Shown: positions 7,727-60,647 of the stretch, in pieces
Numbering within the stretch: position 1 is the first letter of the stretch
Layout: every line of letters starts with the position of its first letter
Virus record (IMG/VR): IMGVR_UViG_3300045115_000211
Location: 32,001 to 96,000 of that record
Source: a virus
Strand: one strand, 5' to 3'
Length of the DNA: 64,000 nt
Notes under the pieces: generated by a model
Database searches by the model: none
What the model saw: only the letters and a program-made list of their open reading frames with translations
Told to the model about the DNA's origin: nothing
Program-made: the position numbers and the translations under genes

Positions 7727-7955
7727 CGTCCGGAGAACACGATGGGCAAGCCTCGCGACGAATGGGGCGGTGACGACGGGCGCGACAGGCGCGACCGCCA
7801 CGAGAAGGTCAACTCTTGCGAGGACTGCGGCGAGAACGGCGGCCGCAGGAGGTTCGAACGCGGCATCGACCTCGGGTTCCTGTGCGACTCCTGCTGGCGC
7901 GAGTCGCAGGCCGAGGCAGACCTCGCATCCGAATAGCCTGCTGTATAATGCCCGC

Positions 7956-9038
7956 ATGGCAACCATCTTCAGCCTCTTCACCGGAGCCGGAGGCCTTGAC
8001 CTCGGGTTCGCACAGGCTGGGTTCCGCACGACCCTCGTCGTCGAGACCGACAAGGCCTGTTGCGACACGTTCGTAGCGAACTTCCACGGCGACCTGACGT
8101 CGGTCAACGGTCCCGTCGAGAACGTGTCGTTCTCCGAGGATTCCCCGGGATTGCTGGAGGTTGCGTTCCGTGGAGCGGAATTCGAGAACCGCTTCCTTCA
8201 GCCACATCCAGACGTCGTGATAGGAGGGGCCCCTTGCCAGGCGTTCTCGGTGGCTGGCCTTCAGAACCCAGACGACCCGAGGGGCACCCTGGTGGGCGAG
8301 TTCGTCAGGATCGTCAGGGAGGTCAGACCGAAGGCGTTCGTCCTGGAGAACGTGCCCCGCCTCCTGACCTCGACGAAGCCCCATGCCGAAGCCGCCAGGC
8401 TGTCCGTGCTTGCCCTGCATGACGTCGGCTACTCCGTCACGACGCACGTCCTGAACGCCAGGGACTTCGGCATCCCGCAGTCCCGCGAGAGGGTCTTCTT
8501 CGTCGGGATGATGAGTCCACTCCCCCACCTCCGGGCCTCTTCCACCGACGGCCACATGTTCCCCCACAGGACTGCCGGCGAAGTGCTGCGCGAGATCGGA
8601 AGGGAAGGAAGGGGAAACGTGCCGAACGCCAAGGTCCAGCCGTCCAAGAAGCCCATCCTCCGTCTGACCCCGTACGCCGGGATGCTGTTCAACGGGACAG
8701 GCAGGCCGATCAGGCTGGACGGGTTGTCTGGCGCCCTGCCGGCATCGATGGGAGGGAACCGCACGCCCATCATCGACGACGAGGAACTGTACGACGGGGC
8801 AGAGCCGTGGGTCGTCCGGTACCACTCCAGGCTCGTGGCCGGCGGGGCACCGGAAGCCTCGGCGCCTGTGAGGCTGCGCAGGATGACGACCGTCGAGGCG
8901 GCGGCCTTCCAGGGGTTCCCGTCCGGCTTCAAGTTCCGTGGGAGCCAAAGCAGCGTGTTCAGGCAGATCGGCAACGCCGTCCCTCCCCCGATGGCGCGCG
9001 CCGTGGCGATGGCGGTCAAGGAGCACATGGGGCTTTGA
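7956..9038 (+). CDS. DNA cytosine-C5 methyltransferase
   Basis: SLFTGAGGLD, GGAPCQAFS, ENV, QSRERVF, QIGNAV; TATAAT 6 nt before ATG. Confidence 0.95.
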   Translation: MATIFSLFTGAGGLDLGFAQAGFRTTLVVETDKACCDTFVANFHGDLTSVNGPVENVSFSEDSPGLLEVAFRGAEFENRFLQPHPDVVIGGAPCQAFSVAGLQNPDDPRGTLVGEFVRIVREVRPKAFVLENVPRLLTSTKPHAEAARLSVLALHDVGYSVTTHVLNARDFGIPQSRERVFFVGMMSPLPHLRASSTDGHMFPHRTAGEVLREIGREGRGNVPNAKVQPSKKPILRLTPYAGMLFNGTGRPIRLDGLSGALPASMGGNRTPIIDDEELYDGAEPWVVRYHSRLVAGGAPEASAPVRLRRMTTVEAAAFQGFPSGFKFRGSQSSVFRQIGNAVPPPMARAVAMAVKEHMGL

Positions 9039-40772: not shown

Positions 40773-41951
40773 ATGCCGTTCGTCAAGGGATCCGAGCACC
40801 GCTTCGCCATGAGGGGAGCCGACAGGACGCCCACGTTCCCCGACCGCTGGTACAACACGAAGGACGGCATCGCGAGGTCGGCGAAGACGCTCGCCGGCCT
40901 GAACGCCCTATTCAGCGCCAGGCGCGACGCGGGATATTGCCGCAACGAGCGCCTCGCCGAGTTCGTGGTCCTCGGCATGTGGTACCTCGACACCTGCGGC
41001 AACGCCATGAAGGCGATGTCCGACGCCCGGGACTTCAACGTGACGCCCAGGAAGGCGTTCACAGACGCCGGCATGGCCATCCCCGACGCCATCGGGATGG
41101 ACGAGATGCACGCCGCCCTCAAGCCCCACTATGCCGAGGACAAGTACCCGCACATGTCGTTCGCGGCGGGGAGCGACCTTCCACAGGCCTATTTCCTGTG
41201 CGCTGGGTGCGGCCGCCCGTGGACCATCGCCGACTGCGACGACGCCGTGTGCGAGCGGGAGGAGGAGGTGGCGAAGGCCGAAGGCTGCGCCGGGATGACG
41301 CTCGGGGACTTCCGCAGGTCGTTCGATGGGCGCAACGACGCCTTGTTCGTGTTCCAGCCCGAACTCGCCGTCCGCAACGACCGCTTCATCGACCTGTCGC
41401 CGAAGTACCCCGGCACGGACAAGGATTGGGAGAAGGGCGTCCCCAAGAACGAGCACGGATGGAAGTCGGAGGGGGAACTCTCTGCCTCGATGGACGCGGG
41501 GGAAATCCACGCCCCGGCGTCATCCCAGCCGAACGTCGACACCTACGTCCTGCAGCCCGGCGACGAGGTCTTGGTCAACGTGTTCCGCTACAGCCACAGG
41601 GCATGCCTCCAGGCCAAGGTCGACCGGGCCGCCATGGCGGCGTTCGCCAAGGCGTTCGAGGACGCCGGCCTGCGGACGGGGATCGGGCTGGCGGAGGTCG
41701 AGAACGAGTACGGCTCCCGCTCGTACCGCGGGCCGTGGTACGTCGCCATGACCGAGATCGGCGAGGTCCGCGTCGGATGGCGCAAGCGGGTCATCGAGGT
41801 CGTCTTCCCCGACTGGGTCCCCGTCGGCACCCTGTTCGCCAAGGAGGACGTCACCAAGTCGGCACACCTGATCCACGCCTGGGGCTACGACAAGCTGGCC
41901 GAGTACCTCAAGGCGGCGAAGAAAGCGGCGAAGGAAGCGAGGAAGACATGA
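40773..41951 (+). CDS. hypothetical phage protein
   Basis: SD AGGAG; N.Y....PW...T..G...VGWRKRVI...EDVTK...IHAW. Confidence 0.7.
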   Translation: MPFVKGSEHRFAMRGADRTPTFPDRWYNTKDGIARSAKTLAGLNALFSARRDAGYCRNERLAEFVVLGMWYLDTCGNAMKAMSDARDFNVTPRKAFTDAGMAIPDAIGMDEMHAALKPHYAEDKYPHMSFAAGSDLPQAYFLCAGCGRPWTIADCDDAVCEREEEVAKAEGCAGMTLGDFRRSFDGRNDALFVFQPELAVRNDRFIDLSPKYPGTDKDWEKGVPKNEHGWKSEGELSASMDAGEIHAPASSQPNVDTYVLQPGDEVLVNVFRYSHRACLQAKVDRAAMAAFAKAFEDAGLRTGIGLAEVENEYGSRSYRGPWYVAMTEIGEVRVGWRKRVIEVVFPDWVPVGTLFAKEDVTKSAHLIHAWGYDKLAEYLKAAKKAAKEARKT

Positions 41952-42337
41952 GGAAGCAGGAGAAGTTCGTCCCATCCCTCAACGACCGCGGCTACAGGTT
42001 CCGCTGCCATGCCAAGGGCGCGCCTGGGGCGTCCGTCGTGTTCGACGTCAGGACCCACCCCCAGTGCTTCGGAACGGGCGACATCCCCGCCCGCTCGACC
42101 TGCCTCATCGATGGCAAGGGGCGGGAGGTCTTCGAGCACGACGTGCTTGAGCTCAGGTCGACAGTCACCGACATGCACAAGCGCAACGCGACGGGCGAGT
42201 ACGGCCCGATGCTGTTCCTCGTGGCGTGGCGCCACGGCGACCCCGTCCTGATCGACCAGGACGCTGTAGAATGGCTTATGGCAGGTAGGGTCGCTCGCCA
42301 CGGGCGAGCGTGGATTGAAACGATGGAAGGGGATTGA
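41948..42337 (+). pseudogene. YopX-like protein whose 3' end is replaced by the CRISPR mini-array
   Basis: YRFR...STCLIDGKGREVFEHDVL (YopX-like); ORF reads through the repeat (VARHGRAWIET). Confidence 0.6.
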
Positions 42338-42378
42338 CAAGGCGCGACTTCGCCCCGCAAACGGGGCGTATATTGGAC
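42290..42378 (+). CRISPR. mini-array: perfect repeat, 27-nt spacer, degenerate repeat (candidate cas-regulating crRNA-like RNA)
   Basis: GTCGCTCGCCACGGGCGAGCGTGGATTGAAAC (42290-42321); TTCGCCCCGCAAACGGGGCGTATATTGGAC (42349-42378) keeps a 7-bp stem. Confidence 0.85.
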
Positions 42379-42462
42379 GGGTCATGGACTGTGGCTACCA
42401 TGGGATTTCTCAATGCCACTTCTTGGGTCGTTGCGAAAAAAAAAAGATTCTATGGAAAGGGG

Positions 42463-42492
42463 TTGACTCCCGACCCATAGTTGTGAGATACT
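42463..42492 (+). promoter_or_regulatory. cas operon promoter
   Basis: TTGACT-18bp-GATACT with TG extension, A-tract UP-like element upstream. Confidence 0.75.
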
Positions 42493-42556
42493 GTTGCCAG
42501 TTGGACCAAGGTGGTTCAACGTGTCGTAGAAACGAAGGAAGAACAGGAGAGTGAGT

Positions 42557-43459
42557 ATGTCGCAGAAGTCGCAGAAGGTCGAGTTCGAGGTTAATGGAGT
42601 TCGCTATGTGGTGTTCGTCGATGCGCGGAGGTCCAACCCTAACGGGCAGGGACAGGGCGAGAACCAGCCCAGGCACTTCGACGACGGCACCGTGTGGGCC
42701 AGCGCAGAAAGCATCAAGCGCGGCATCAGGGACACGTGGATCGCAGAACTGGATGGCGTCCCCGGCTGCGACGTGTTCGTCTACCCCAGGCGCCCCATCG
42801 TGGAGGCCATCGCTGCGGCCCGTCCCGGACGCCAGCGGTTCGACGACGCCGGCGAGATGGCTGCGGCGGTACGCCAGAAGTACATCGACGCACGGGCGTT
42901 CGGTGTCGTCCTGGCAGACGGCAAGGCCGAGAGCGGCGACGATGACGATGGCGGCTCCAAGAAGAAGTCAAAGCAGCTTTCGATCGGGCTCAGGGGGCCA
43001 GTCGTCGTCACCGACGCCGACTCCGTCGAGCCCACGCCGATCGAGGAAATGGACATCTCTCGCTGCTGTCCCCACAAGGACGACAACGACAAGGACCACA
43101 ACCAGGGGAAGAAGTGGTTCGTCCGCTACGGCCGCCTGCGCTTCTGCGTCTATGTCGAGCCGCACATGGCTCGCCAGAGCGGGTTCAGCAAGGAAGACCT
43201 CGGGCGCCTGGAGGATGCCCTGAAGGACGTCTACAAGCACAGGCGCACCGCCAGCCGCCCCGACATGAGGACCGTGGCCGTCTACCGGCTGACCCCTCGC
43301 GAAGGCATGAAGCCCTCGTCGAGGGCGATGGACGAGATCACCGACCGCATCCAGTCCAAGCGGGTCGTCCCCGGAGACGTCCCGACCGAGGGGTGCTACT
43401 CCCTGCCCAACGCCGAGGAGTTCTGCACCGAGCAGGTTCTCGTCGAAAGGATCGACTGA
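42557..43459 (+). CDS. cas7: type I-C Cas7 (Csd2), divergent
   Basis: SNPNG...N.PR, IKR.IRD, YID.RAFG.V, RGPV, G.KW.V.YG, A...GFS.EDL. Confidence 0.85.
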   Translation: MSQKSQKVEFEVNGVRYVVFVDARRSNPNGQGQGENQPRHFDDGTVWASAESIKRGIRDTWIAELDGVPGCDVFVYPRRPIVEAIAAARPGRQRFDDAGEMAAAVRQKYIDARAFGVVLADGKAESGDDDDGGSKKKSKQLSIGLRGPVVVTDADSVEPTPIEEMDISRCCPHKDDNDKDHNQGKKWFVRYGRLRFCVYVEPHMARQSGFSKEDLGRLEDALKDVYKHRRTASRPDMRTVAVYRLTPREGMKPSSRAMDEITDRIQSKRVVPGDVPTEGCYSLPNAEEFCTEQVLVERID

Positions 43460-43466
43460 CCGACAC

Positions 43467-43503
43467 GATTGCCGCCTGTGGCTGCTTGCCACAGGCGGCA
43501 ATC
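43467..43503. terminator. perfect 16-bp inverted repeat between cas7 and cas5
   Basis: GATTGCCGCCTGTGGC-TGCTT-GCCACAGGCGGCAATC; no clear U-tract. Confidence 0.6.
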
Positions 43504-43520: not shown

Positions 43521-44201
43521 ATGGCTACCAGCAGCAACGTCAGGGTCCTGGTCGGGATTCGCGGGCGCAGGGCCTGCTTCTCCAACCCGTCCGCCGGCAA
43601 GATCAACAAGTTCTCGTACCCGTTCATCACGGTGTCGGCGGCGCGAGGAGTGGTGGCGTCCGTGTTCCATCGCCCGCAGATGGACTGGGTGCCGACCCGC
43701 ATTGCGGTCATGAGGGCCGGACGGTCCGCCAACGTCGCCAGCAACGAAATCGACTTCGATCTGTCGTCGACCGATCCCGTCTTCGCCGACGAGGCAAGGA
43801 TGCAGGTCAGCGCGCGGATTCTCGTTGACGTCGACTACATCATCGAGGCCGAGCCGGTCGTGCTCTGCCCCGGAACCACCGATGACCCGAACACGCCGGA
43901 GAAGTATGCCGCACAGTTCAACCGCATCTTGGTGGACGGCAAGGGGCTGTACTACTCCACGCCGTGCCTTGGCCCGCGCCAGTACGTCGGGCGGCTCTAT
44001 CCCGTCGAGCGGTTCCCGGAGCGGGGGTGCGCGATCCCCGACCTGGAGGTCCGATCCATGTTGGTCGGCATCTCCAAGGGCGCCGACAGGCGCGACGGCG
44101 GACGGGACTATCCCGTTTTCGCCGACATCCGCCTCGTAGATGGGATCTTCTCCGCCCCGAGGTTCGTGTCGTCCATGTTCAACCCTGGAGAATCGGCATG
44201 A
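43521..44201 (+). CDS. cas5: type I-C Cas5 (Cas5d)
   Basis: G.RACFS.P, SYPFIT.SAARG, L.DVDY.IEA, KY...F.R, PCLG.R. Confidence 0.9.
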   Translation: MATSSNVRVLVGIRGRRACFSNPSAGKINKFSYPFITVSAARGVVASVFHRPQMDWVPTRIAVMRAGRSANVASNEIDFDLSSTDPVFADEARMQVSARILVDVDYIIEAEPVVLCPGTTDDPNTPEKYAAQFNRILVDGKGLYYSTPCLGPRQYVGRLYPVERFPERGCAIPDLEVRSMLVGISKGADRRDGGRDYPVFADIRLVDGIFSAPRFVSSMFNPGESA

Positions 44202-46030
44202 TTTCGATGAGCCCGGTCCAGGAGGTCATCGCCCTGTATGACGCGCTTTCGGCGGCTGGCCAGATGCCGCCCCTTTGTTGGGGGCAGGCGACGATCGGAA
44301 TGACGGTGAAGATCGACGATCATGGGGGCGTCAGGACCGCCATGCCGCTCGGCAATGACTGCTCGATGGTCGTCCCCATCCCGTTCGTGTCCAGGTCCTC
44401 TGGCCTGGCGCCGACATTCGGGACGGACAACGCCAAGTACCTCGTGGGCGAGGCATGGGAGGCGTGGCGCGAACACCACCTCGCCTTCTCCGACAAGGCC
44501 GCGTTCCCTCCCGCATTCGTCCACTTCCTCAAGAACGGGAAGACCCCGTTCGTCCCCACCAAGGAACCCAAGATCATCAGGCTCTCGGGTTCGGACTTGT
44601 CGGGGACGTTCGTCATCGAGTTGCCTGACGGCACCTACCTGCACGAACACGCCAGCGTCAAGTCGTTCTGGCAGCCGGACAACATCATCGATTGGGAGAA
44701 CCACGGCAGGCTGTCCCAGGGTCGAGACCCGATCCGCACCGTCGAGGGGTATTCATCGGTCGACGGCAAGTGGGGCAAGCTCGTCGAGTTCCACGCCGCG
44801 ATCGGGATGGTCGTACCCGAGGCCCAAGGCTCCGCCAAGCTGGGGGCGGTAAACACCAGTGGCGGGGGGTACTCTTCGTACGGAATGGACGGCGGCTTCA
44901 CTTCCCCCATGACCATCGACCAGACGTTCAAGTTGGCATCGACGATCAGGTTCCTTGGCAACAGGGACAAGGCCGCAGGAGACCGAACGTCGTGCAGGCC
45001 GATCGTCGCGCGGGGAAGGAAGATCAGCATCATGTCCGACAGGATGAAGGCCGTGAAGGCCCTCGTCCTGGGCTGGGGCGAGCCGACGGCGGTGTCGTGG
45101 ATGAACGAGGAGTTCGCCAAGGACGACGACTCCATGAGGAAGGCCATCGACGTCATCGATGGGATCATGTGCGGCAAGGCCGAGGTTCCTGGCGTGACGC
45201 AGGACGACCGGGTGTGCTTCATGGCGATGTCCGCCCCGACCAAGGGTCGGATAGCCATTGACGAGTTCTGGTCTGGGGACGCGCCGACCGTCGCCGTCAA
45301 GATGGCCAAGTGGCACGCCGCATCGATGACCACGGATCCCGACATGACCCGGCAGGTGCAGACGAGGTACCAGTTCGTGAAAAGCCTCGGGATTGGCCAC
45401 GACAAGGCGCTGAACGAGAGCGAGGCGCACGTCGTCAGGGGACTGTTCCAGTCCGCCATCGAAGGCGAGCAGATGCCGGTCGACATCGCATACCATGTCA
45501 GGAGGGCATGCCAGAGGGTTCTGGCCACAGGGGACGCATTTGTCCACGGGCGTTCGAGCCTGTACAGCCCACTGCGCACGCTCCGGGGCTGCATGGCTAG
45601 GGCGGGAGTGGGGTTCAATGAGGGAGGATACGAGATGATCGATAAGACCGCGGCATACCAGTTGGGCGTCCTGCTGATAGCGTTCGACGACGCCGTGCGG
45701 AGCGACGAGTGGAGGCGGACGAGGAAGTGGAGCCGCAGCAGCGTTAACGGCCTGCACTCGAACACGAAGAGCATCCTTCCGACGTGCCTGGCGAAGCCGT
45801 CGGCGGCGGTGGCCACAATGCGGCATAAGCATATGCAATACTACGCGCGGTATTGGCCGCAGGACGCCGTCAACATCAACGACGAGTGCTTCTCCGCTCT
45901 GCCCGCAACCCCTCTTTCGCAGCAGCAGCGGGACGAGTTCTTCGCCGGCACCGCACACGGCCTCGAACTGCGCTCCAGGAAGATCGCCGCCATCAAGGCG
46001 GCAAAGACCCAGAGGGAAGCGCGTGAATAG
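44198..46030 (+). CDS. cas8c: type I-C Cas8c (Csd1)
   Basis: RSSG.AP....DNAKY..G, AKL...N....SYG, GRIA...F, AY.LG. Confidence 0.85.
   Translation: MISMSPVQEVIALYDALSAAGQMPPLCWGQATIGMTVKIDDHGGVRTAMPLGNDCSMVVPIPFVSRSSGLAPTFGTDNAKYLVGEAWEAWREHHLAFSDKAAFPPAFVHFLKNGKTPFVPTKEPKIIRLSGSDLSGTFVIELPDGTYLHEHASVKSFWQPDNIIDWENHGRLSQGRDPIRTVEGYSSVDGKWGKLVEFHAAIGMVVPEAQGSAKLGAVNTSGGGYSSYGMDGGFTSPMTIDQTFKLASTIRFLGNRDKAAGDRTSCRPIVARGRKISIMSDRMKAVKALVLGWGEPTAVSWMNEEFAKDDDSMRKAIDVIDGIMCGKAEVPGVTQDDRVCFMAMSAPTKGRIAIDEFWSGDAPTVAVKMAKWHAASMTTDPDMTRQVQTRYQFVKSLGIGHDKALNESEAHVVRGLFQSAIEGEQMPVDIAYHVRRACQRVLATGDAFVHGRSSLYSPLRTLRGCMARAGVGFNEGGYEMIDKTAAYQLGVLLIAFDDAVRSDEWRRTRKWSRSSVNGLHSNTKSILPTCLAKPSAAVATMRHKHMQYYARYWPQDAVNINDECFSALPATPLSQQQRDEFFAGTAHGLELRSRKIAAIKAAKTQREARE
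45635..46030 (+). CDS. cas11: internally translated Cas11c small subunit
   Basis: in-frame ATG preceded by GGGAGGA SD, followed by MID...AYQLG, the position where I-C Cas11 is known to start. Confidence 0.75.
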   Translation: MIDKTAAYQLGVLLIAFDDAVRSDEWRRTRKWSRSSVNGLHSNTKSILPTCLAKPSAAVATMRHKHMQYYARYWPQDAVNINDECFSALPATPLSQQQRDEFFAGTAHGLELRSRKIAAIKAAKTQREARE

Positions 46031-48428
46031 GCGCGACAAGACCCGATACGTCGGGATGGTCGAGGGCCTCGGCCTCAACCCCTATTCCCGCCCCGCGCAT
46101 CTGGAAAACGGCTTGCTGGCCCCGCGGGAGCGGTGGGAGGTGATGCCGGAACACCTGGGCGCCGTCGCGGCCTTGGCCAAAGCGTTCGGAGACAAGATCG
46201 GTCTCGGAGACATATGCGAGGTGGCGGGAGGCGGGCACGACACGGGAAAGTTTGACCTCCAGATGCTTGGCAGGTTCCTTGGCCGCGTCGAGTCGTTCGA
46301 CCATCCCGCCCTCGGCGCCGCCCTGTTGGACGCCGCCACGGAAGGCATACTGACGCAGCCGATCCTAGGGCACCACCGCTACATCCCCGACGAGACGGAG
46401 GAGGACGCCTCGGAATGCGTGTCTGCAAGGCTGGAGAAGGCAGCCACCCATCGGCATTCCATCGAACTGATACCCTTTCTGGATCGCGCCGCCGAGGCAG
46501 CCAGGACGGCGAAGTCCGTCCTGAAGGCGGCGTTGCGGTCGGAATTCCCGAACGCCGCCGACCAGGAGCGCTTCTTCCCGATGTTCTTCTTCGCGATGCA
46601 GAAGTTCATCAACTCGGCCCTCGTCGATGCGGACTGCCTGTCAGCCGAGAGGTTCCACAAGGGTCACGGACGCCGGAACAGGTTCCCCCCGATGTCCGTC
46701 CTCCTGGATCGACTCGTGAGGTTCCAGGCCCGGGTTGCCGCCGCAGGAGCGGCGACGGCGGAGCCTTGGCTTGTTGAAATGCGCAACGACGTGTGGGCGT
46801 CCGCGATCTCCGCCGCCCGGCTGGAAGCCTCGTTGTACTTCCTGACCGCCCCGACGGGAAGCGCCAAGACGCTGGCCTACGTCGTGCTTGCGATGATGAA
46901 GGCCGTCAGCTTGGGCCTCGACAGGGTGATCATCGTGCTGCCCTATTGCGCGGTCACGTCCCAGGTCAGCGACGTCCTTCGGGCCGCCATCGGCAGGGGC
47001 AATGTGATAGAGCACCACACGGGCTACGACCCCAAGGAACGAGTCAAGTCTTTCCGCTCGTACCGCCAGATACTGGCGAACACCCCAAGGAACACATCGG
47101 CGTTGCACAAGGAGTCCTCCAGCCTGCAGGAGGAGATGAGGCAGACTTTCGAGAACTGGGACGCCCCCGTGATCGTCACCACGCGCGAGCAGTTCGACGA
47201 GTCCTTCTTCTGCCGGCTCCCAGGGCGCAGCCGCAAGGTCCACAACATGGCCAGGAGCGCCATCGTGTTCGACGAGATCCAGGCCGGCAACAGGGACCTG
47301 ACCATACCGTTCGTCGGGATGCTGCACGTCCTGCGGTCGCTGTACCGCTCGGTCGTCATCTGCTCCACGGCCACCCAGCCGTCCTATCACAAGTCTGACG
47401 ACAGGCAGTGGGGACTGGAAGGAGGGGTCGATGTCGTCGCCAGGCATCGCGAGTATTTCGCCATCGCTTCTCGACGCACCAGCATGACCAGGATAGGCAG
47501 GAAGTCATCCCGAGAAGTGGCCGAGATGGTCGCCGAGCACCGCCAGGTCATGTGCGTCCTGAACACGCGCCTCAACGCCGTTCTCGTCTCGACACAACTG
47601 GAGAGGATGGGGGTTCCACACATCCTGCTGTACTCCTTGCGCTGCAAGCGCGAGCGCAACCGGGTGGTTCGCCTGGTGGCGAGGTGCCTGGCAGCAGGCA
47701 TCCCCATCAGGCTGGTCACCACCCAGGCGGTCGAGGCGGGGACTGACTTCGACTTCCCGGTCGGGTATTCCGAGGACGCCCCGTTGGACTCCCTCGACCA
47801 GCGCCGCGGTCGAGTCAACCGGCACGGAAGGCGTGGGACGAGCCAGTTCTACGTGTTCACCCTGTGTGACGGCAACAGCAACCCCTCGTACGTAGCGGGC
47901 TTGGCCTCCACCGAGACCGTCCTCTCATCGACGGGGGACTTCAACGTCGTCGACGTCGGGACGATGGACGCCTACTACGCCAGGATGTTGAGGAGCGAGA
48001 AGCCGCTCGACAAGCACAGGATCGTCCCCGACAGGCACATGTCGATGTCCGGGCGCGGCGGTCTTTTCAGGTCGAAGTCGAAGTATCCTCCGACCGCCGG
48101 GGCCAATGTCTACAGGACGAGGTTCGCCTCGTACGACGAGTTCAAGTACATCGGCGGAAAGTGCAGCGTCGTGATCCCTACCAACGCCGAGTGCAGGCGG
48201 GCGATAGCCGACATGGATGCCGCCATGGCATCGGGAAAGAAGCCCGCTCGAAAGACGTTGGCCACCTTGAGCGGATACGTCGTCAGCATCTATGAGAACG
48301 AACTGGATGATCTCGCCCGTAAGACCATCTTGGAGAACCACAATGGGTTCTTCGTCCTGCGCGATGTGGCTGGCTTCTATAATGCCAAGAGGGGTCTGCT
48401 GATCGCTGGGATGGATGGAGTGGATTGA
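46023..48428 (+). CDS. cas3: Cas3 HD nuclease-helicase
   Basis: EHL, HDTGK, DH, GHH, LVDAD; APTGSAKT, ENWDAP, DEIQ, STATQP, TQ.VEAG.D.DF, Q.RGRVNR.G. Confidence 0.93.
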   Translation: MNRRDKTRYVGMVEGLGLNPYSRPAHLENGLLAPRERWEVMPEHLGAVAALAKAFGDKIGLGDICEVAGGGHDTGKFDLQMLGRFLGRVESFDHPALGAALLDAATEGILTQPILGHHRYIPDETEEDASECVSARLEKAATHRHSIELIPFLDRAAEAARTAKSVLKAALRSEFPNAADQERFFPMFFFAMQKFINSALVDADCLSAERFHKGHGRRNRFPPMSVLLDRLVRFQARVAAAGAATAEPWLVEMRNDVWASAISAARLEASLYFLTAPTGSAKTLAYVVLAMMKAVSLGLDRVIIVLPYCAVTSQVSDVLRAAIGRGNVIEHHTGYDPKERVKSFRSYRQILANTPRNTSALHKESSSLQEEMRQTFENWDAPVIVTTREQFDESFFCRLPGRSRKVHNMARSAIVFDEIQAGNRDLTIPFVGMLHVLRSLYRSVVICSTATQPSYHKSDDRQWGLEGGVDVVARHREYFAIASRRTSMTRIGRKSSREVAEMVAEHRQVMCVLNTRLNAVLVSTQLERMGVPHILLYSLRCKRERNRVVRLVARCLAAGIPIRLVTTQAVEAGTDFDFPVGYSEDAPLDSLDQRRGRVNRHGRRGTSQFYVFTLCDGNSNPSYVAGLASTETVLSSTGDFNVVDVGTMDAYYARMLRSEKPLDKHRIVPDRHMSMSGRGGLFRSKSKYPPTAGANVYRTRFASYDEFKYIGGKCSVVIPTNAECRRAIADMDAAMASGKKPARKTLATLSGYVVSIYENELDDLARKTILENHNGFFVLRDVAGFYNAKRGLLIAGMDGVD

Positions 48429-48465
48429 AATTGGACGAGCCGTCTGCCGGATGAGGACAGAGCAA

Positions 48466-49872
48466 GTCGCTCGCCACGGGCGAGCGTGGATTGAAACGAC
48501 TCCACCCGTCGGGATCAATGGCGGACAGAGGTCGCTCGCCACAAGCGAGCGTGGATTGAAACCCCGACTCGTTCCTGCTGCCCGAGTTCGACGAGTCGCT
48601 CGTCACAGGCGAGCGTGGATTGAAACTGTTCGGGCTTTTGCGACCAAGCCTGATAGCGCTTGTCGCTCGCCACAGGCGAGCGTGGATTGAAACAGGTTGT
48701 TGCCGAGCGCCGCGAGCCGCAACACGAGTCGCTCGCCACAAGCGAGCGTGGATTGAAACGACTCTCGCCGCCGGCATCAATGAAGGTCATGGTCGCTCGC
48801 CACAGGCGAGCGTGGATTGAAATGCGCGCTCGCCGTACGCCTGCCCAAGCTCAGGGGCGTCGCTCGCCACATGCGAGCGTGGATTGAAATGGGTCTTCGG
48901 GCAGGCACAGACCCTGTAGGTATGTCGCTCGCCACAGGCGAGCGTGGATTGAAATAGCGCCTGCTTGGCGGCGATGTAGGCGTCCAGTTGTCGCTCGCCA
49001 CAGGCGAGCGTGGATTGAAATGAGAGCGAACGCCGCGGACATCGCGGCACGACGGGTCGCTCGCCACAGGCGAGCGTGGATTGAAATATCTGGGTTCGGT
49101 CCCTGTCGCCGATGACGCGACGTCGCTCGCCACAGGCGAGCGTGGATTGAAACCTCCCGTACCCGCCGGGCATGCTCAGGTGCTACGGTCGCTCGCCACA
49201 GGCGAGCGTGGATTGAAACGACCGTGAGGGCCTGCCCCAATGTATGTGGCGGTCGCTCGCCACAGGCGAGCGTGGATTGAAACGCGTACGTGCAACTCGT
49301 ACGAAAGCTGGCCAACGGTCGCTCGCCACAGGCGAGCGTGGATTGAAACCTTCACTTGCCCCCGTCTCGCCGCTCGGCGTGTCGCTCGCCACAGGCGAGC
49401 GTGGATTGAAACGCCCTGCATGCCGTCAGGGCCGAGGCGGTGAAGATCGCTCGCCACAGGCGGGCGTGGATTGAAACGTGACGAACGGGGAGACAACGGT
49501 CGACCCTCTGCGTCGCTCGCCACAGGCGAGCGTGGATTGAAACGCCTCCAAAGCGCCGCGCCACGGCCGCCATGGAGTCGCTCGCCACAGGCGGGCGTGG
49601 ATTGAAATATGATGTTCGAACTGGACTGCCCGATCCCGTCTGGTCGCTCGCTACAAGCGAGCGTGGATTGAAACATGTCGAGTCCCTCCTGATACGCGCC
49701 CACCATGGAGTCGCTCGCCACTGGCGAGCGTGGCATTGAAACAAGGTCCGCAGGATATCGATGTGGCCCGACGAGGTCGCTCGCCACAGGCGAGCGTGGT
49801 ATTGAAACCGCAAGCCCCGCTGATCGACATCACCTGCCCGGTCGCTCGCCACAGGCGAGCGTGGATTGAAAC
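48466..49872 (+). CRISPR. type I-C CRISPR array, 22 repeats / 21 spacers (31-35 nt), plus a degenerate repeat at 48400-48431 and a 34-nt spacer before it
   Basis: consensus GTCGCTCGCCACAGGCGAGCGTGGATTGAAAY, 32 bp. Confidence 0.98.
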
Positions 49873-59600: not shown

Positions 59601-60647
59601 GGTGCCATGAAGTCAACGAAGCACCGGCATGTCGCCGGGCGGGCGGCCGAAAGGCTGGACGCCGCCCTGCGGGTGGACGCCGACGCCGCCAGGCGCGAGC
59701 ACGCCCTCGTGGCGATGGCGACGCTGCTCGTCTCCGGGGGCTGCCGCGCCTGCTCGTCCCCGCGGGAGGTGAACCGGCTGATGCCCGACGGGGAGTGGTT
59801 CCGCACGCGGCACGAGCTGAGGCGCGTCACGGGCGGGCGGAAGGCGGCGCTGCGGAGGCTCGCCGCCGGCGGGATCGTGCCTGCCGGCCGTTTCGGGGCA
59901 TGGTCGCCCGACTTCTGGGCTGGCTTGCGGCTTTCCGGCGCGATCCATCCCGACAGCCATCCGAGGGAGTGGGTCGTGAGGTTCCCGCGCAGGCACGAGG
60001 CGTTGCTGGAGGACATGCTGGGCGAGGCGCCGTTCATGCGCCGCTGGTCGGACTCCAAGCGTGGGGTGACGCTCTGGTCGCTGTGGGCGGCGGAGATGGG
60101 GGCCGACGATCCGGCGGGCGCCGGCGTGCTGGCGGGGCTGATGGCTGGGGCGCGCAGGCTGGACGACGGACAGGGGATGGGGTGGGCCGTGGTGACGGAC
60201 TCCTTGGGCGCCAGGCGGCTTCTGGGGGATCTGATGGTGCCTTTCGTTGTGGAGCGGCGGAGGCGGGGGCTGGCGTTGAGCCCGTTCTGGGGGGCGCTGG
60301 TGGCGCACATGATGCCTGCGGCGAGCGCGGAGAGGTACAGGCTGTGGCTTCGGCCGGCGTGCTGTCCCTTGCTGCCGTGGGCGTTCCTGGCGCACGCCTG
60401 GGGGAAGGGGTTCGCCGGGATGAGGCGGCACGTGCCGTGGGCGTCGGCGCGTCCGTGGGCGATCAGGGGCAGGTTCCCCACGGAGGGCAGGCGGCTCCGG
60501 AGGGCTGGCCTGGACAGGCTGGGGTTCCTGGGCGTGTCGCCCGTGTTGAGGGCCGCCTGGCTGGAGGGGGCGCGTCGGAAGGGGCTTGACTTCGAAGGGG
60601 GGATGTGTCATGATGGTCTCGTGAAAGGGGAGGAAGGGACGCCATGA
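59598..60647 (+). CDS. hypothetical basic protein next to the skew switch
   Basis: long ORF; start uncertain. Confidence 0.55.
   Translation: MGAMKSTKHRHVAGRAAERLDAALRVDADAARREHALVAMATLLVSGGCRACSSPREVNRLMPDGEWFRTRHELRRVTGGRKAALRRLAAGGIVPAGRFGAWSPDFWAGLRLSGAIHPDSHPREWVVRFPRRHEALLEDMLGEAPFMRRWSDSKRGVTLWSLWAAEMGADDPAGAGVLAGLMAGARRLDDGQGMGWAVVTDSLGARRLLGDLMVPFVVERRRRGLALSPFWGALVAHMMPAASAERYRLWLRPACCPLLPWAFLAHAWGKGFAGMRRHVPWASARPWAIRGRFPTEGRRLRRAGLDRLGFLGVSPVLRAAWLEGARRKGLDFEGGMCHDGLVKGEEGTP
60586..60614 (+). promoter_or_regulatory. sigma70-like promoter
   Basis: TTGACT-17bp-CATGAT. Confidence 0.7.

Follow-up and report, generated by a model that had tools for sequence, protein, structure and literature searches.

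How does a phage control a costly and potentially self-damaging nuclease during infection? The question is raised by a 64,000-nt stretch of viral DNA, which comprises bases 32001-96000 of the 113,194-bp IMG/VR virus record IMGVR_UViG_3300045115_000211 (CheckV completeness, 62%). This whole stretch is called the window below, and coordinates refer to it unless a contig is named. The window contains a type I-C operon of CRISPR-associated genes, a main CRISPR array, and a mini-CRISPR. The mini-CRISPR consists of one intact repeat, a short pseudo-spacer (the guide), and a putative degenerate repeat. It lies 178 nt before cas7, which heads the operon, and 6 kb from the main array. A first-pass annotation, made from the letters alone, had proposed that its spacer targets the promoter of the cas operon. 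We consider it probable that the mini-CRISPR encodes a CreR-type CRISPR RNA (crRNA)-like RNA of a virus-encoded, interference-only I-C system, and that this RNA parks Cascade on the system's own promoter.

Target site on the cas7 promoter

The guide matches a site on the cas7 promoter that is flanked by TTC (Table 1). The annotated match of 14/17 at TTC (42448-42467) over the -35 box of this promoter was confirmed by a promoter scan and by match statistics. The matched 17 nt span positions -48 to -32 of the promoter and cover the -35 box. The three mismatches within them are at guide positions 1, 8, and 12. Position 12 is a sixth position, and every sixth guide position is flipped out in Cascade. 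The cas7 promoter is the only sigma-70-like site in 41800-42700. It is a member of the TTGACT(CC)-N17-TAnnAT family, and transcription of the operon is predicted to start near 42499. The A10 tract upstream of it appears to be UP-element-like. TTC is the protospacer-adjacent motif (PAM) of type I-C systems, and TTT is a weaker documented I-C PAM (PMC5602111).

The match is unlikely to be due to chance. Among the TTC sites in the 177-nt interval before cas7, 14/17 was reached by none of 20,000 shuffled spacers and by none of 20,000 random 27-mers from the genome. The guide length of 17 used in this comparison was chosen after the fact, and at lengths of 12 or 27 the null fraction is 0.4-0.7%. 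A fair estimate of the overall chance probability is about 1e-3 or lower. The target is the best TTC-flanked site for the guide in the entire record. The 22 ordinary spacers provide an internal control. They reach at most 9/17 at TTC before cas7, versus 14/17 for the guide.

Table 1. Coordinates of the mini-CRISPR, its target, the type I-C system, and other features of the window
Feature	Coordinates	Strand	Description
-10-only promoter motif TGTAGAATG	42265-42273	+	TAGAAT at 42267-72; 18 nt before the repeat
Intact CRISPR repeat	42290-42321	+	32/32 identity to array repeat 1 (48466-48497); covariance model, 45.2 bits
27-nt pseudo-spacer (guide)	42322-42348	+	Shorter than the 31-35-nt array spacers
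Degenerate downstream repeat	42349-42379	+	Hairpin 42351-42368 plus 11-nt tail
A10 tract	42436-42445	+	Upstream of the -35; unusual in a record with 64.6% GC
TTC, canonical I-C PAM	42448-42450	+	Non-target strand, directly 5' of the protospacer
Partial protospacer	42451-42477	+	Positions 1-17 match 14/17; positions 18-27 match 1/10
cas operon promoter	42463-42492	+	-35 TTGACT 42463-68, 18-nt gap, TG-extended -10 GATACT 42487-92
cas7 (Csd2-like), first gene of the operon	42557-43459	+	Pfam Cas_Cas7, 5.7e-36; NCBIfam cas_Csd2, 1.9e-28
cas5c	43521-44201	+	Pfam Cas_Cas5d; NCBIfam cas_Cas5d, 1.6e-15
cas8c (Csd1-like)	44198-46030	+	Pfam Cas_Csd1, 2.7e-27
cas3 (HD nuclease and helicase)	46023-48428	+	NCBIfam cas3_HD, 47.9 bits (cut-off 43.45); cas3_core, 1.8e-28
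Main CRISPR array	48402-49872	+	Decayed repeat within the cas3 end, then 22 repeats and 21 spacers from 48466
DNA methyltransferases, paralogous, at least 3	Window 7770-9038; L014 17372-18349; L015 11890-12978		PHROGs, phrog_116

Mini-CRISPR

The repeat, the spacer, and the target are present where they had been annotated. The intact repeat is the sole repeat outside the array in the whole 113-kb record. It is predicted to supply the 11-nt 5' handle of the putative crRNA-like RNA. The guide is shorter than the array spacers by about one Cas7 step (6 nt).

The downstream element had been described as a degenerate repeat whose stem is preserved by compensatory changes. The stem and the changes were found. 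The element contains a perfect 7-bp stem (42351-57 / 42362-68) with the same offset as in the repeat and with three compensatory pair changes. Its recognisability as a repeat is weak, at 7.8 bits under a covariance model of 21 repeats from the record plus L010, a related metagenome contig. The 11-nt tail has 6/11 identity to the repeat. The minimum free energy fold contains the hairpins of both the intact repeat and the downstream element. Perfect 7-bp hairpins occur outside the array at 4.7e-4 per nt, which gives a p of about 0.007 for one at the right distance. The element resembles the terminal repeat of L010, and 4/5000 random 32-mers score equally. Its hairpin is predicted to serve as a 3' handle bound by Cas5c.

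The spacer also contains TTGACA. This was considered as a promoter -35 and rejected, as no -10 lies at 16-19 nt.

Predicted transcription of the unit

The mini-CRISPR is preceded by a -10-only promoter motif (Table 1). The 9-mer TGTAGAATG has 6 copies in the 113-kb record, compared with 0.24 expected. Four copies are located at most 34 nt before genes supported by GC content at third codon positions (GC3), and some of these genes start 6-7 nt after the box (leaderless). The copy at 42265 precedes the repeat and no open reading frame (ORF). From its position, the mini-array transcript is predicted to start near 42278-80, about 10-12 nt before the repeat. The first-pass annotation had listed the motif at two further places. 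GCTGTAGAATG is exact at 42263 and 17802; the copy near 7944 is a one-mismatch TATAAT variant.

The upstream gene (41948-42337) has 129 codons and no Pfam, PHROG, or NCBIfam match. Its GC3 coding signal is strong only to about 42260. The last ~25 codons traverse the mini-array promoter and the repeat, and the stop codon is inside the guide. As this frame runs into the unit, read-through transcription of the unit is also likely.

The record has a second promoter class, with about 22 near-consensus TTGACT(CC)-N17-TAnnAT sites on the + strand. Examples are at window positions 1731, 2988, 9258, 14314, 26860, 36635, and 57275. Many of them have an ATG or GTG 6-7 nt after the -10, which indicates leaderless mRNAs.

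On the minus strand, the PAM and target position 1 read TAGAAT (window 42447-42452), followed by a T10 run. This box is -10-like and faces the mini-array. It has no recognisable -35 and no evident gene. Since CreA represses divergent promoters in Haloarcula, it is conceivable that the minus-strand box gives rise to an antisense or toxin-like transcript.

Relatives of the locus

A word search with Cas7 retrieved near-identical cluster mates only. An exhaustive HMMER search retrieved four Cas7 relatives with 35-43% identity (P0006-P0009). The locus comparison covers P0006 alone, which is encoded by L010. Scans of IMG/VR with Cas7, the Cas7 alignment, and P0007-P0009 gave no match, and a scan of GTDB genomes gave none.

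L010 is 4,957 bp long. Its Cas7 is 40% identical to that of the window, and its gene order, cas7-cas5-cas8c, is the same. It contains an array of 16 repeats and 15 spacers directly upstream of cas7. Thirteen of the spacers measure 29-36 nt, and the remaining two are near-copies of each other with a length of 21 nt. The short spacers match a TTC-flanked site (1097-1117) at 11/12, with the only mismatch at position 6. The site lies 12 nt after a TAGAAT box in the cas7 upstream region. This match was equalled by 1/20,000 shuffles and 6/20,000 21-mers from the contig, and the 13 normal spacers reach at most 8/12. A second matched site (1375-1395) is flanked by TTT and has mismatches at positions 6, 12, 13, 14, 18, and 20. 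The L010 short spacer has no match in IMG/VR.

A spacer-promoter match in homologues had been named beforehand as a check on the autorepression proposal. L010 provides one: a short spacer that differs from the window guide matches, at TTC, the region upstream of this contig's own cas7. The window guide and the L010 short spacer are not demonstrably homologous, and we therefore claim a conserved guide-target relation, not base-by-base covariation.

The region 1000-1510 of L010 is a tandem duplication of the promoter, the protospacer, the ribosome-binding site, and the first ~20 cas7 codons. Copy 1 (TTC, better match) precedes a truncated cas7 start, and copy 2 (TTT) precedes the real cas7. A 34-nt spacer of L010 (487-520) contains a diverged copy of the short regulatory spacer.

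The flank ATTGGACG after the decayed repeat of the window mini-array recurs after the L010 terminal repeats and also follows the decayed repeat at the cas3 end. The resemblance of the decayed repeat and its flank to the L010 terminal repeat and flank suggests that the window mini-array is a remnant of an ancestral upstream array.

Human-gut contigs labelled 'Bacteriophage sp.' encode a Cas7 of about 25% identity. They were set aside as relatives of the locus. Their I-C array is of the ordinary kind, and the stretch examined contains no upstream mini-array.

Proposed mechanism

We infer transcription, processing, binding, and repression from the anatomy of the unit, the match statistics, and the parallel in L010. 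The unit would have its own -10-only promoter as a source of transcripts, with read-through from the gene upstream as a probable second source. Cas5c would cleave after the repeat hairpin. In the resulting RNA, the 27-nt guide would be flanked by the normal 11-nt handle at the 5' end and by the decayed repeat's hairpin at the 3' end. With Cas7, Cas5, and Cas8c, it would form a Cascade that is one Cas7 shorter than normal. Cas8c would read the TTC at 42448-50, and the guide would pair with positions 2-17 of the site, with position 12 flipped out and position 8 in a G-T wobble. Cascade positioned from -51 to about -22 (counted from the predicted start near 42499), over the UP/-35 region, would block both RNA polymerase and upstream read-through. 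Pairing would end after position 17. The R-loop would thus be incomplete, Cas3 would not be licensed, and the phage would not cut itself. As Cas3 has its HD domain, full self-matches would be dangerous. The outcome would be negative feedback on the synthesis of Cascade and Cas3. By analogy with CreR, this feedback would relax when canonical crRNAs, with the main array as their source, or inhibitors occupy the Cas proteins. Roles in buffering and in sensing anti-CRISPRs may follow by analogy with CreR (bioRxiv 10.1101/2023.03.10.532045).

A broader reading is possible, and we hold it as tentative and rather doubtful. It takes the self-repressing guide as an ancestral, built-in part of a cas7-first, adaptation-less, virus-carried I-C clade. 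L010 would keep two copies of the guide in its main array upstream of cas7. Defence guides and the operon-silencing guide would then come from a single L010 transcript. In the window phage, the array would have moved behind cas3, and the regulatory unit alone would have been kept at the old place. During infection, a strong early promoter would drive a burst of Cascade and Cas3 that limits itself and that resumes once Cascade is occupied by anti-CRISPRs of rival phages or by a flood of crRNA.

Evidence against autorepression and alternative explanations

Each computational prediction of autorepression that was tested supports it: the match, the PAM flank, the promoter overlap, the guide length, the promoter motif, and L010. 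The following observations weigh against it. A second site, at 60574, also matches the guide at 14/17. It is on another promoter and has no PAM, and part of the similarity is therefore cheap. The match consists partly of the common -35 motif TTGAC and of a purine-rich motif that is frequent in the genome. TTC is assumed from the I-C literature to be the PAM of this divergent system. Two mismatches are in the seed region, at position 1 (G-A, a true mismatch) and position 8 (rG-dT wobble). The position-1 mismatch, which the first-pass annotation had flagged, is the main worry. In Legionella type I-C, a T1A target mutation raised transformation only from about 1% to about 9%, with ~90% of interference left (PMC5602111). 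A mismatch at position 1 therefore need not abolish binding, and by analogy it is plausible that Cascade binds here despite it. The downstream element scores 7.8 bits with an E value of 0.045 in a 239-nt interval and was undetected in a window-wide search. Processing of the 3' end at this barely recognisable repeat is uncertain. The similarity between the window guide and the L010 short spacer is not significant, as 5-9% of shuffles score equally. L010 is the only informative homologue. The near-identical locus L009 has 2 base changes in the upstream gene, but its mini-array and promoter are unchanged, and it thus offers no covariation.

The mini-CRISPR could be an inert relic of the ancestral upstream array that is still upstream in L010. 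The promoter match would then be a chance event aided by TTGAC and the purine-rich run. We judge this unlikely. Such a relic would explain why the downstream repeat is barely detectable and why it and its flank resemble the L010 terminal repeat, with the flank also found after the decayed repeat at the cas3 end. The PAM-less 14/17 match at another promoter and a null probability of only 0.4-0.7% at guide lengths of 12 or 27 are in keeping with it as well. A relic origin is compatible with function, however, and the same origin has been proposed for regulatory mini-arrays (PMC10120712). The upstream repeat is intact at 32/32, whereas the downstream one has decayed. The PAM, the PAM-proximal match, the promoter overlap, and a dedicated promoter all coincide at this locus. 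The same logic appears independently in L010, where the short spacers alone match.

The unit could instead be a counter-defence RNA of the Cracr/Racr type, with the match to its own promoter being secondary. It would soak up Cas proteins, or repress the cas promoter, of a I-C system in a host or rival phage. It is established that phages carry mini-arrays and solitary repeats by which host cas promoters are silenced or Cas complexes poisoned, and some are predicted to act against I-C (10.1101/2024.10.29.618823; PMC10651486; PMC10120712). The repeat family is ordinary I-C, with a related array in a human-gut contig. Even so, we regard this explanation as quite improbable. The target is a cis site in the cas promoter of the phage itself, 100 nt downstream, and the repeat is identical to that of the phage's own array. 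The exact repeat is absent from the genomes of 185,579 species (GTDB) and from all other IMG/VR contigs. The 27-nt guide is within the CreA/CreR range, whereas viral Cracr guides have a 19-nt median, as measured for type I-F (10.1101/2024.10.29.618823). The guide might have an additional target in the host. The self-match would be incidental if the spacer were an ordinary one serving interference with a foreign target, or if the unit were a solitary repeat with the upstream gene's terminator hairpin behind it. We consider this very unlikely. A terminase-like gene from an AT-rich phage contains a 20-nt exact match to guide positions 2-21; it is represented by two IMG/VR contigs that share one sequence (L017 4258-4277 and L018 4516-4535). 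As a foreign protospacer, this match was rejected as chance. It has a TTA flank, only 2/7 of the other guide positions match, and about 0.1 such matches are expected by chance, a rough estimate from the collection size. A length of 27 nt is also atypical for this array. A GC-rich hairpin with TATATT behind it lies at 42351-68, 14 nt after the upstream gene's stop codon, but it failed the criteria of the terminator scan.

Comparison with known systems

Autorepression by CreR has been shown for Salmonella enterica I-E, Halobacterium hubeiense I-B, and Moraxella bovoculi V-A (bioRxiv 10.1101/2023.03.10.532045). A regulatory mini-array has been shown for I-F1 (PMC10120712). In both papers, I-C examples are listed or counted as untested predictions. 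The window unit resembles CreR in several ways. Beside the effector genes stand a repeat-like element, a short pseudo-spacer, and what is probably a decayed repeat, and the first repeat-like element best preserves the 5' handle. Starting on the side of the presumed PAM, the guide is complementary in part to a site that this PAM adjoins, at or beside the -35 of the effector promoter. There is no sign of a toxin gene, and the predicted outcome is autorepression without cleavage. CreA/CreR guides are 23-27 nt long (bioRxiv 10.1101/2024.10.29.618823), a range that the 27-nt window guide fits. The window unit differs from CreR in being on a virus record, in subtype I-C, and in a cas7-first operon without adaptation genes. 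Its upstream repeat is fully intact. It has seed mismatches at positions 1 and 8, compared with 15 consecutive matches in Salmonella. It is known from sequence alone.

The mini-arrays of Shmakov et al. in Pseudomonas aeruginosa YL84 I-F1 and Escherichia coli I-E are aimed at the cas8 promoter (PMC10120712). Like the window unit, they have two repeat-like units, the distal one degenerate, and a downstream target at a canonical PAM. Mismatches are tolerated at every sixth position. The origin proposed for them, from the terminal unit of an array, fits the resemblance of the window's decayed repeat to the L010 terminal repeat. Mini-arrays were reported in 7% of I-C loci, with no I-C case detailed (PMC10120712). 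The phage mini-arrays in that study mimic host regulators against host cas promoters, whereas the window phage is predicted to regulate its own cas genes.

Cracr and Racr RNAs (10.1101/2024.10.29.618823; PMC10651486) are also phage-encoded crRNA-like units with a short guide against a cas promoter. Some arrays multiplex such guides, which is reminiscent of the short spacers within the L010 array. Those RNAs hijack host Cas proteins to silence host immunity. In the window, both the Cas proteins and the target promoter are phage-encoded and adjoin the unit, and the prediction is therefore self-regulation, not counter-defence. CreTA modules (CreA antitoxin RNA and CreT toxin) likewise use partial complementarity, by which the guide of a degenerate mini-CRISPR keeps Cascade on a promoter. 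The window unit differs in that no candidate toxin gene separates it from cas7 and in that its target is the cas promoter.

Virus-encoded CRISPR-Cas systems are regarded as weaponry, directed at host defences or at rival phages. The mechanism proposed here is itself already published and has been predicted for I-C. What is new is the carrier, a virus-encoded, adaptation-less, cas7-first I-C system that would regulate itself, which is not described in the literature searched. The arrangement in L010, with regulatory spacers embedded in the main array, is also new. A 2024 review of CRISPR in mobile elements makes no mention of autoregulation (PMC11656645). If the autorepression reading is true, CreR logic extends to subtype I-C and to viruses, and the locus would be a natural source of a compact guide-promoter pair for a four-gene I-C Cascade. 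The implied pairing rules (TTC PAM, 17-nt partial pairing, 27-nt guide) are easily tested and could be used for CRISPR interference (CRISPRi). The gain is incremental. The ancestral-guide proposal, if true, would describe the first feedback-controlled CRISPR weapon of a virus.

Type I-C genes and main array

The operon contains cas7, cas5c, cas8c, and cas3 (Table 1). The start of cas7 at 42557 was chosen after the cluster mate P0001. The ATG of cas8c overlaps the stop codon of cas5 (ATGA). The best Pfam and NCBIfam matches for all of the Cas proteins are type I-C families. Apart from cas3_HD, the scores are under the NCBIfam I-C equivalog cut-offs, which indicates a divergent system. The operon holds no additional gene from cas7 to cas3; Cas6 models were not specifically searched. 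Cas1 and Cas2 were not found anywhere in the 113-kb record, which is 62% complete. The canonical I-C order is cas3-cas5-cas8c-cas7, then cas4-cas1-cas2. The order here is cas7-cas5-cas8c-cas3, unlike the canonical one. Together with the absence of Cas1 and Cas2 from the record, it points to a variant, interference-only I-C system.

The stretch between cas7 and cas5 contains a perfect 16-17-bp hairpin (window 43467-43503), the right arm of which resembles the repeat core. This hairpin may stabilise or attenuate the mRNA and so favour Cas7 over the later subunits.

The main array begins within the end of cas3. The cas3 stop codon is inside a decayed repeat (window 48402-48465; covariance model, 18.2 bits, E=0.014). 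The distance from this decayed repeat to the first full array repeat is exactly one spacer length, 34 nt, and there is therefore no separate leader. The flank TTGAAATTGGACGAG, 3' of the decayed repeat at the cas3 end, recurs after the L010 terminal repeat (995 onward). A similar flank recurs more weakly in the tail of the mini-array's decayed repeat.

The repeat is of the I-C type. It is 32 nt long, forms a hairpin, and has the 3' end ATTGAAAC. In Rfam, the repeats matched CRISPR-DR9 only, in all cases below the gathering score. The ordinary spacers span 31-35 nt (n=22, including the one after the decayed repeat). When the array was compared by blastn with 50,697 phage records, the related array and sub-threshold matches were all that came back, with no protospacers. 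Spacers 1 (48498-48530) and 5 (48760-48791) are alike, with the same start and a common central motif, as if diverged variants of one target had been captured twice.

Viral nature of the record

The GC content of the whole record was 64.6%, and the + strand carries almost all of the genes. We call the system phage-borne because of the IMG/VR classification and the phage-like gene content. In a PHROGs scan of 20 large ORFs, many matched phage families, including phage families of unknown function. No structural genes were found among these 20 ORFs. The matches included the paralogous DNA methyltransferases (Table 1), an NAD-dependent ligase, a ribonucleotide reductase large subunit, and AAA ATPases. 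The methyltransferases, the ribonucleotide reductase, and the ligase together represent an investment in DNA modification and nucleotide metabolism that is typical of large phages.

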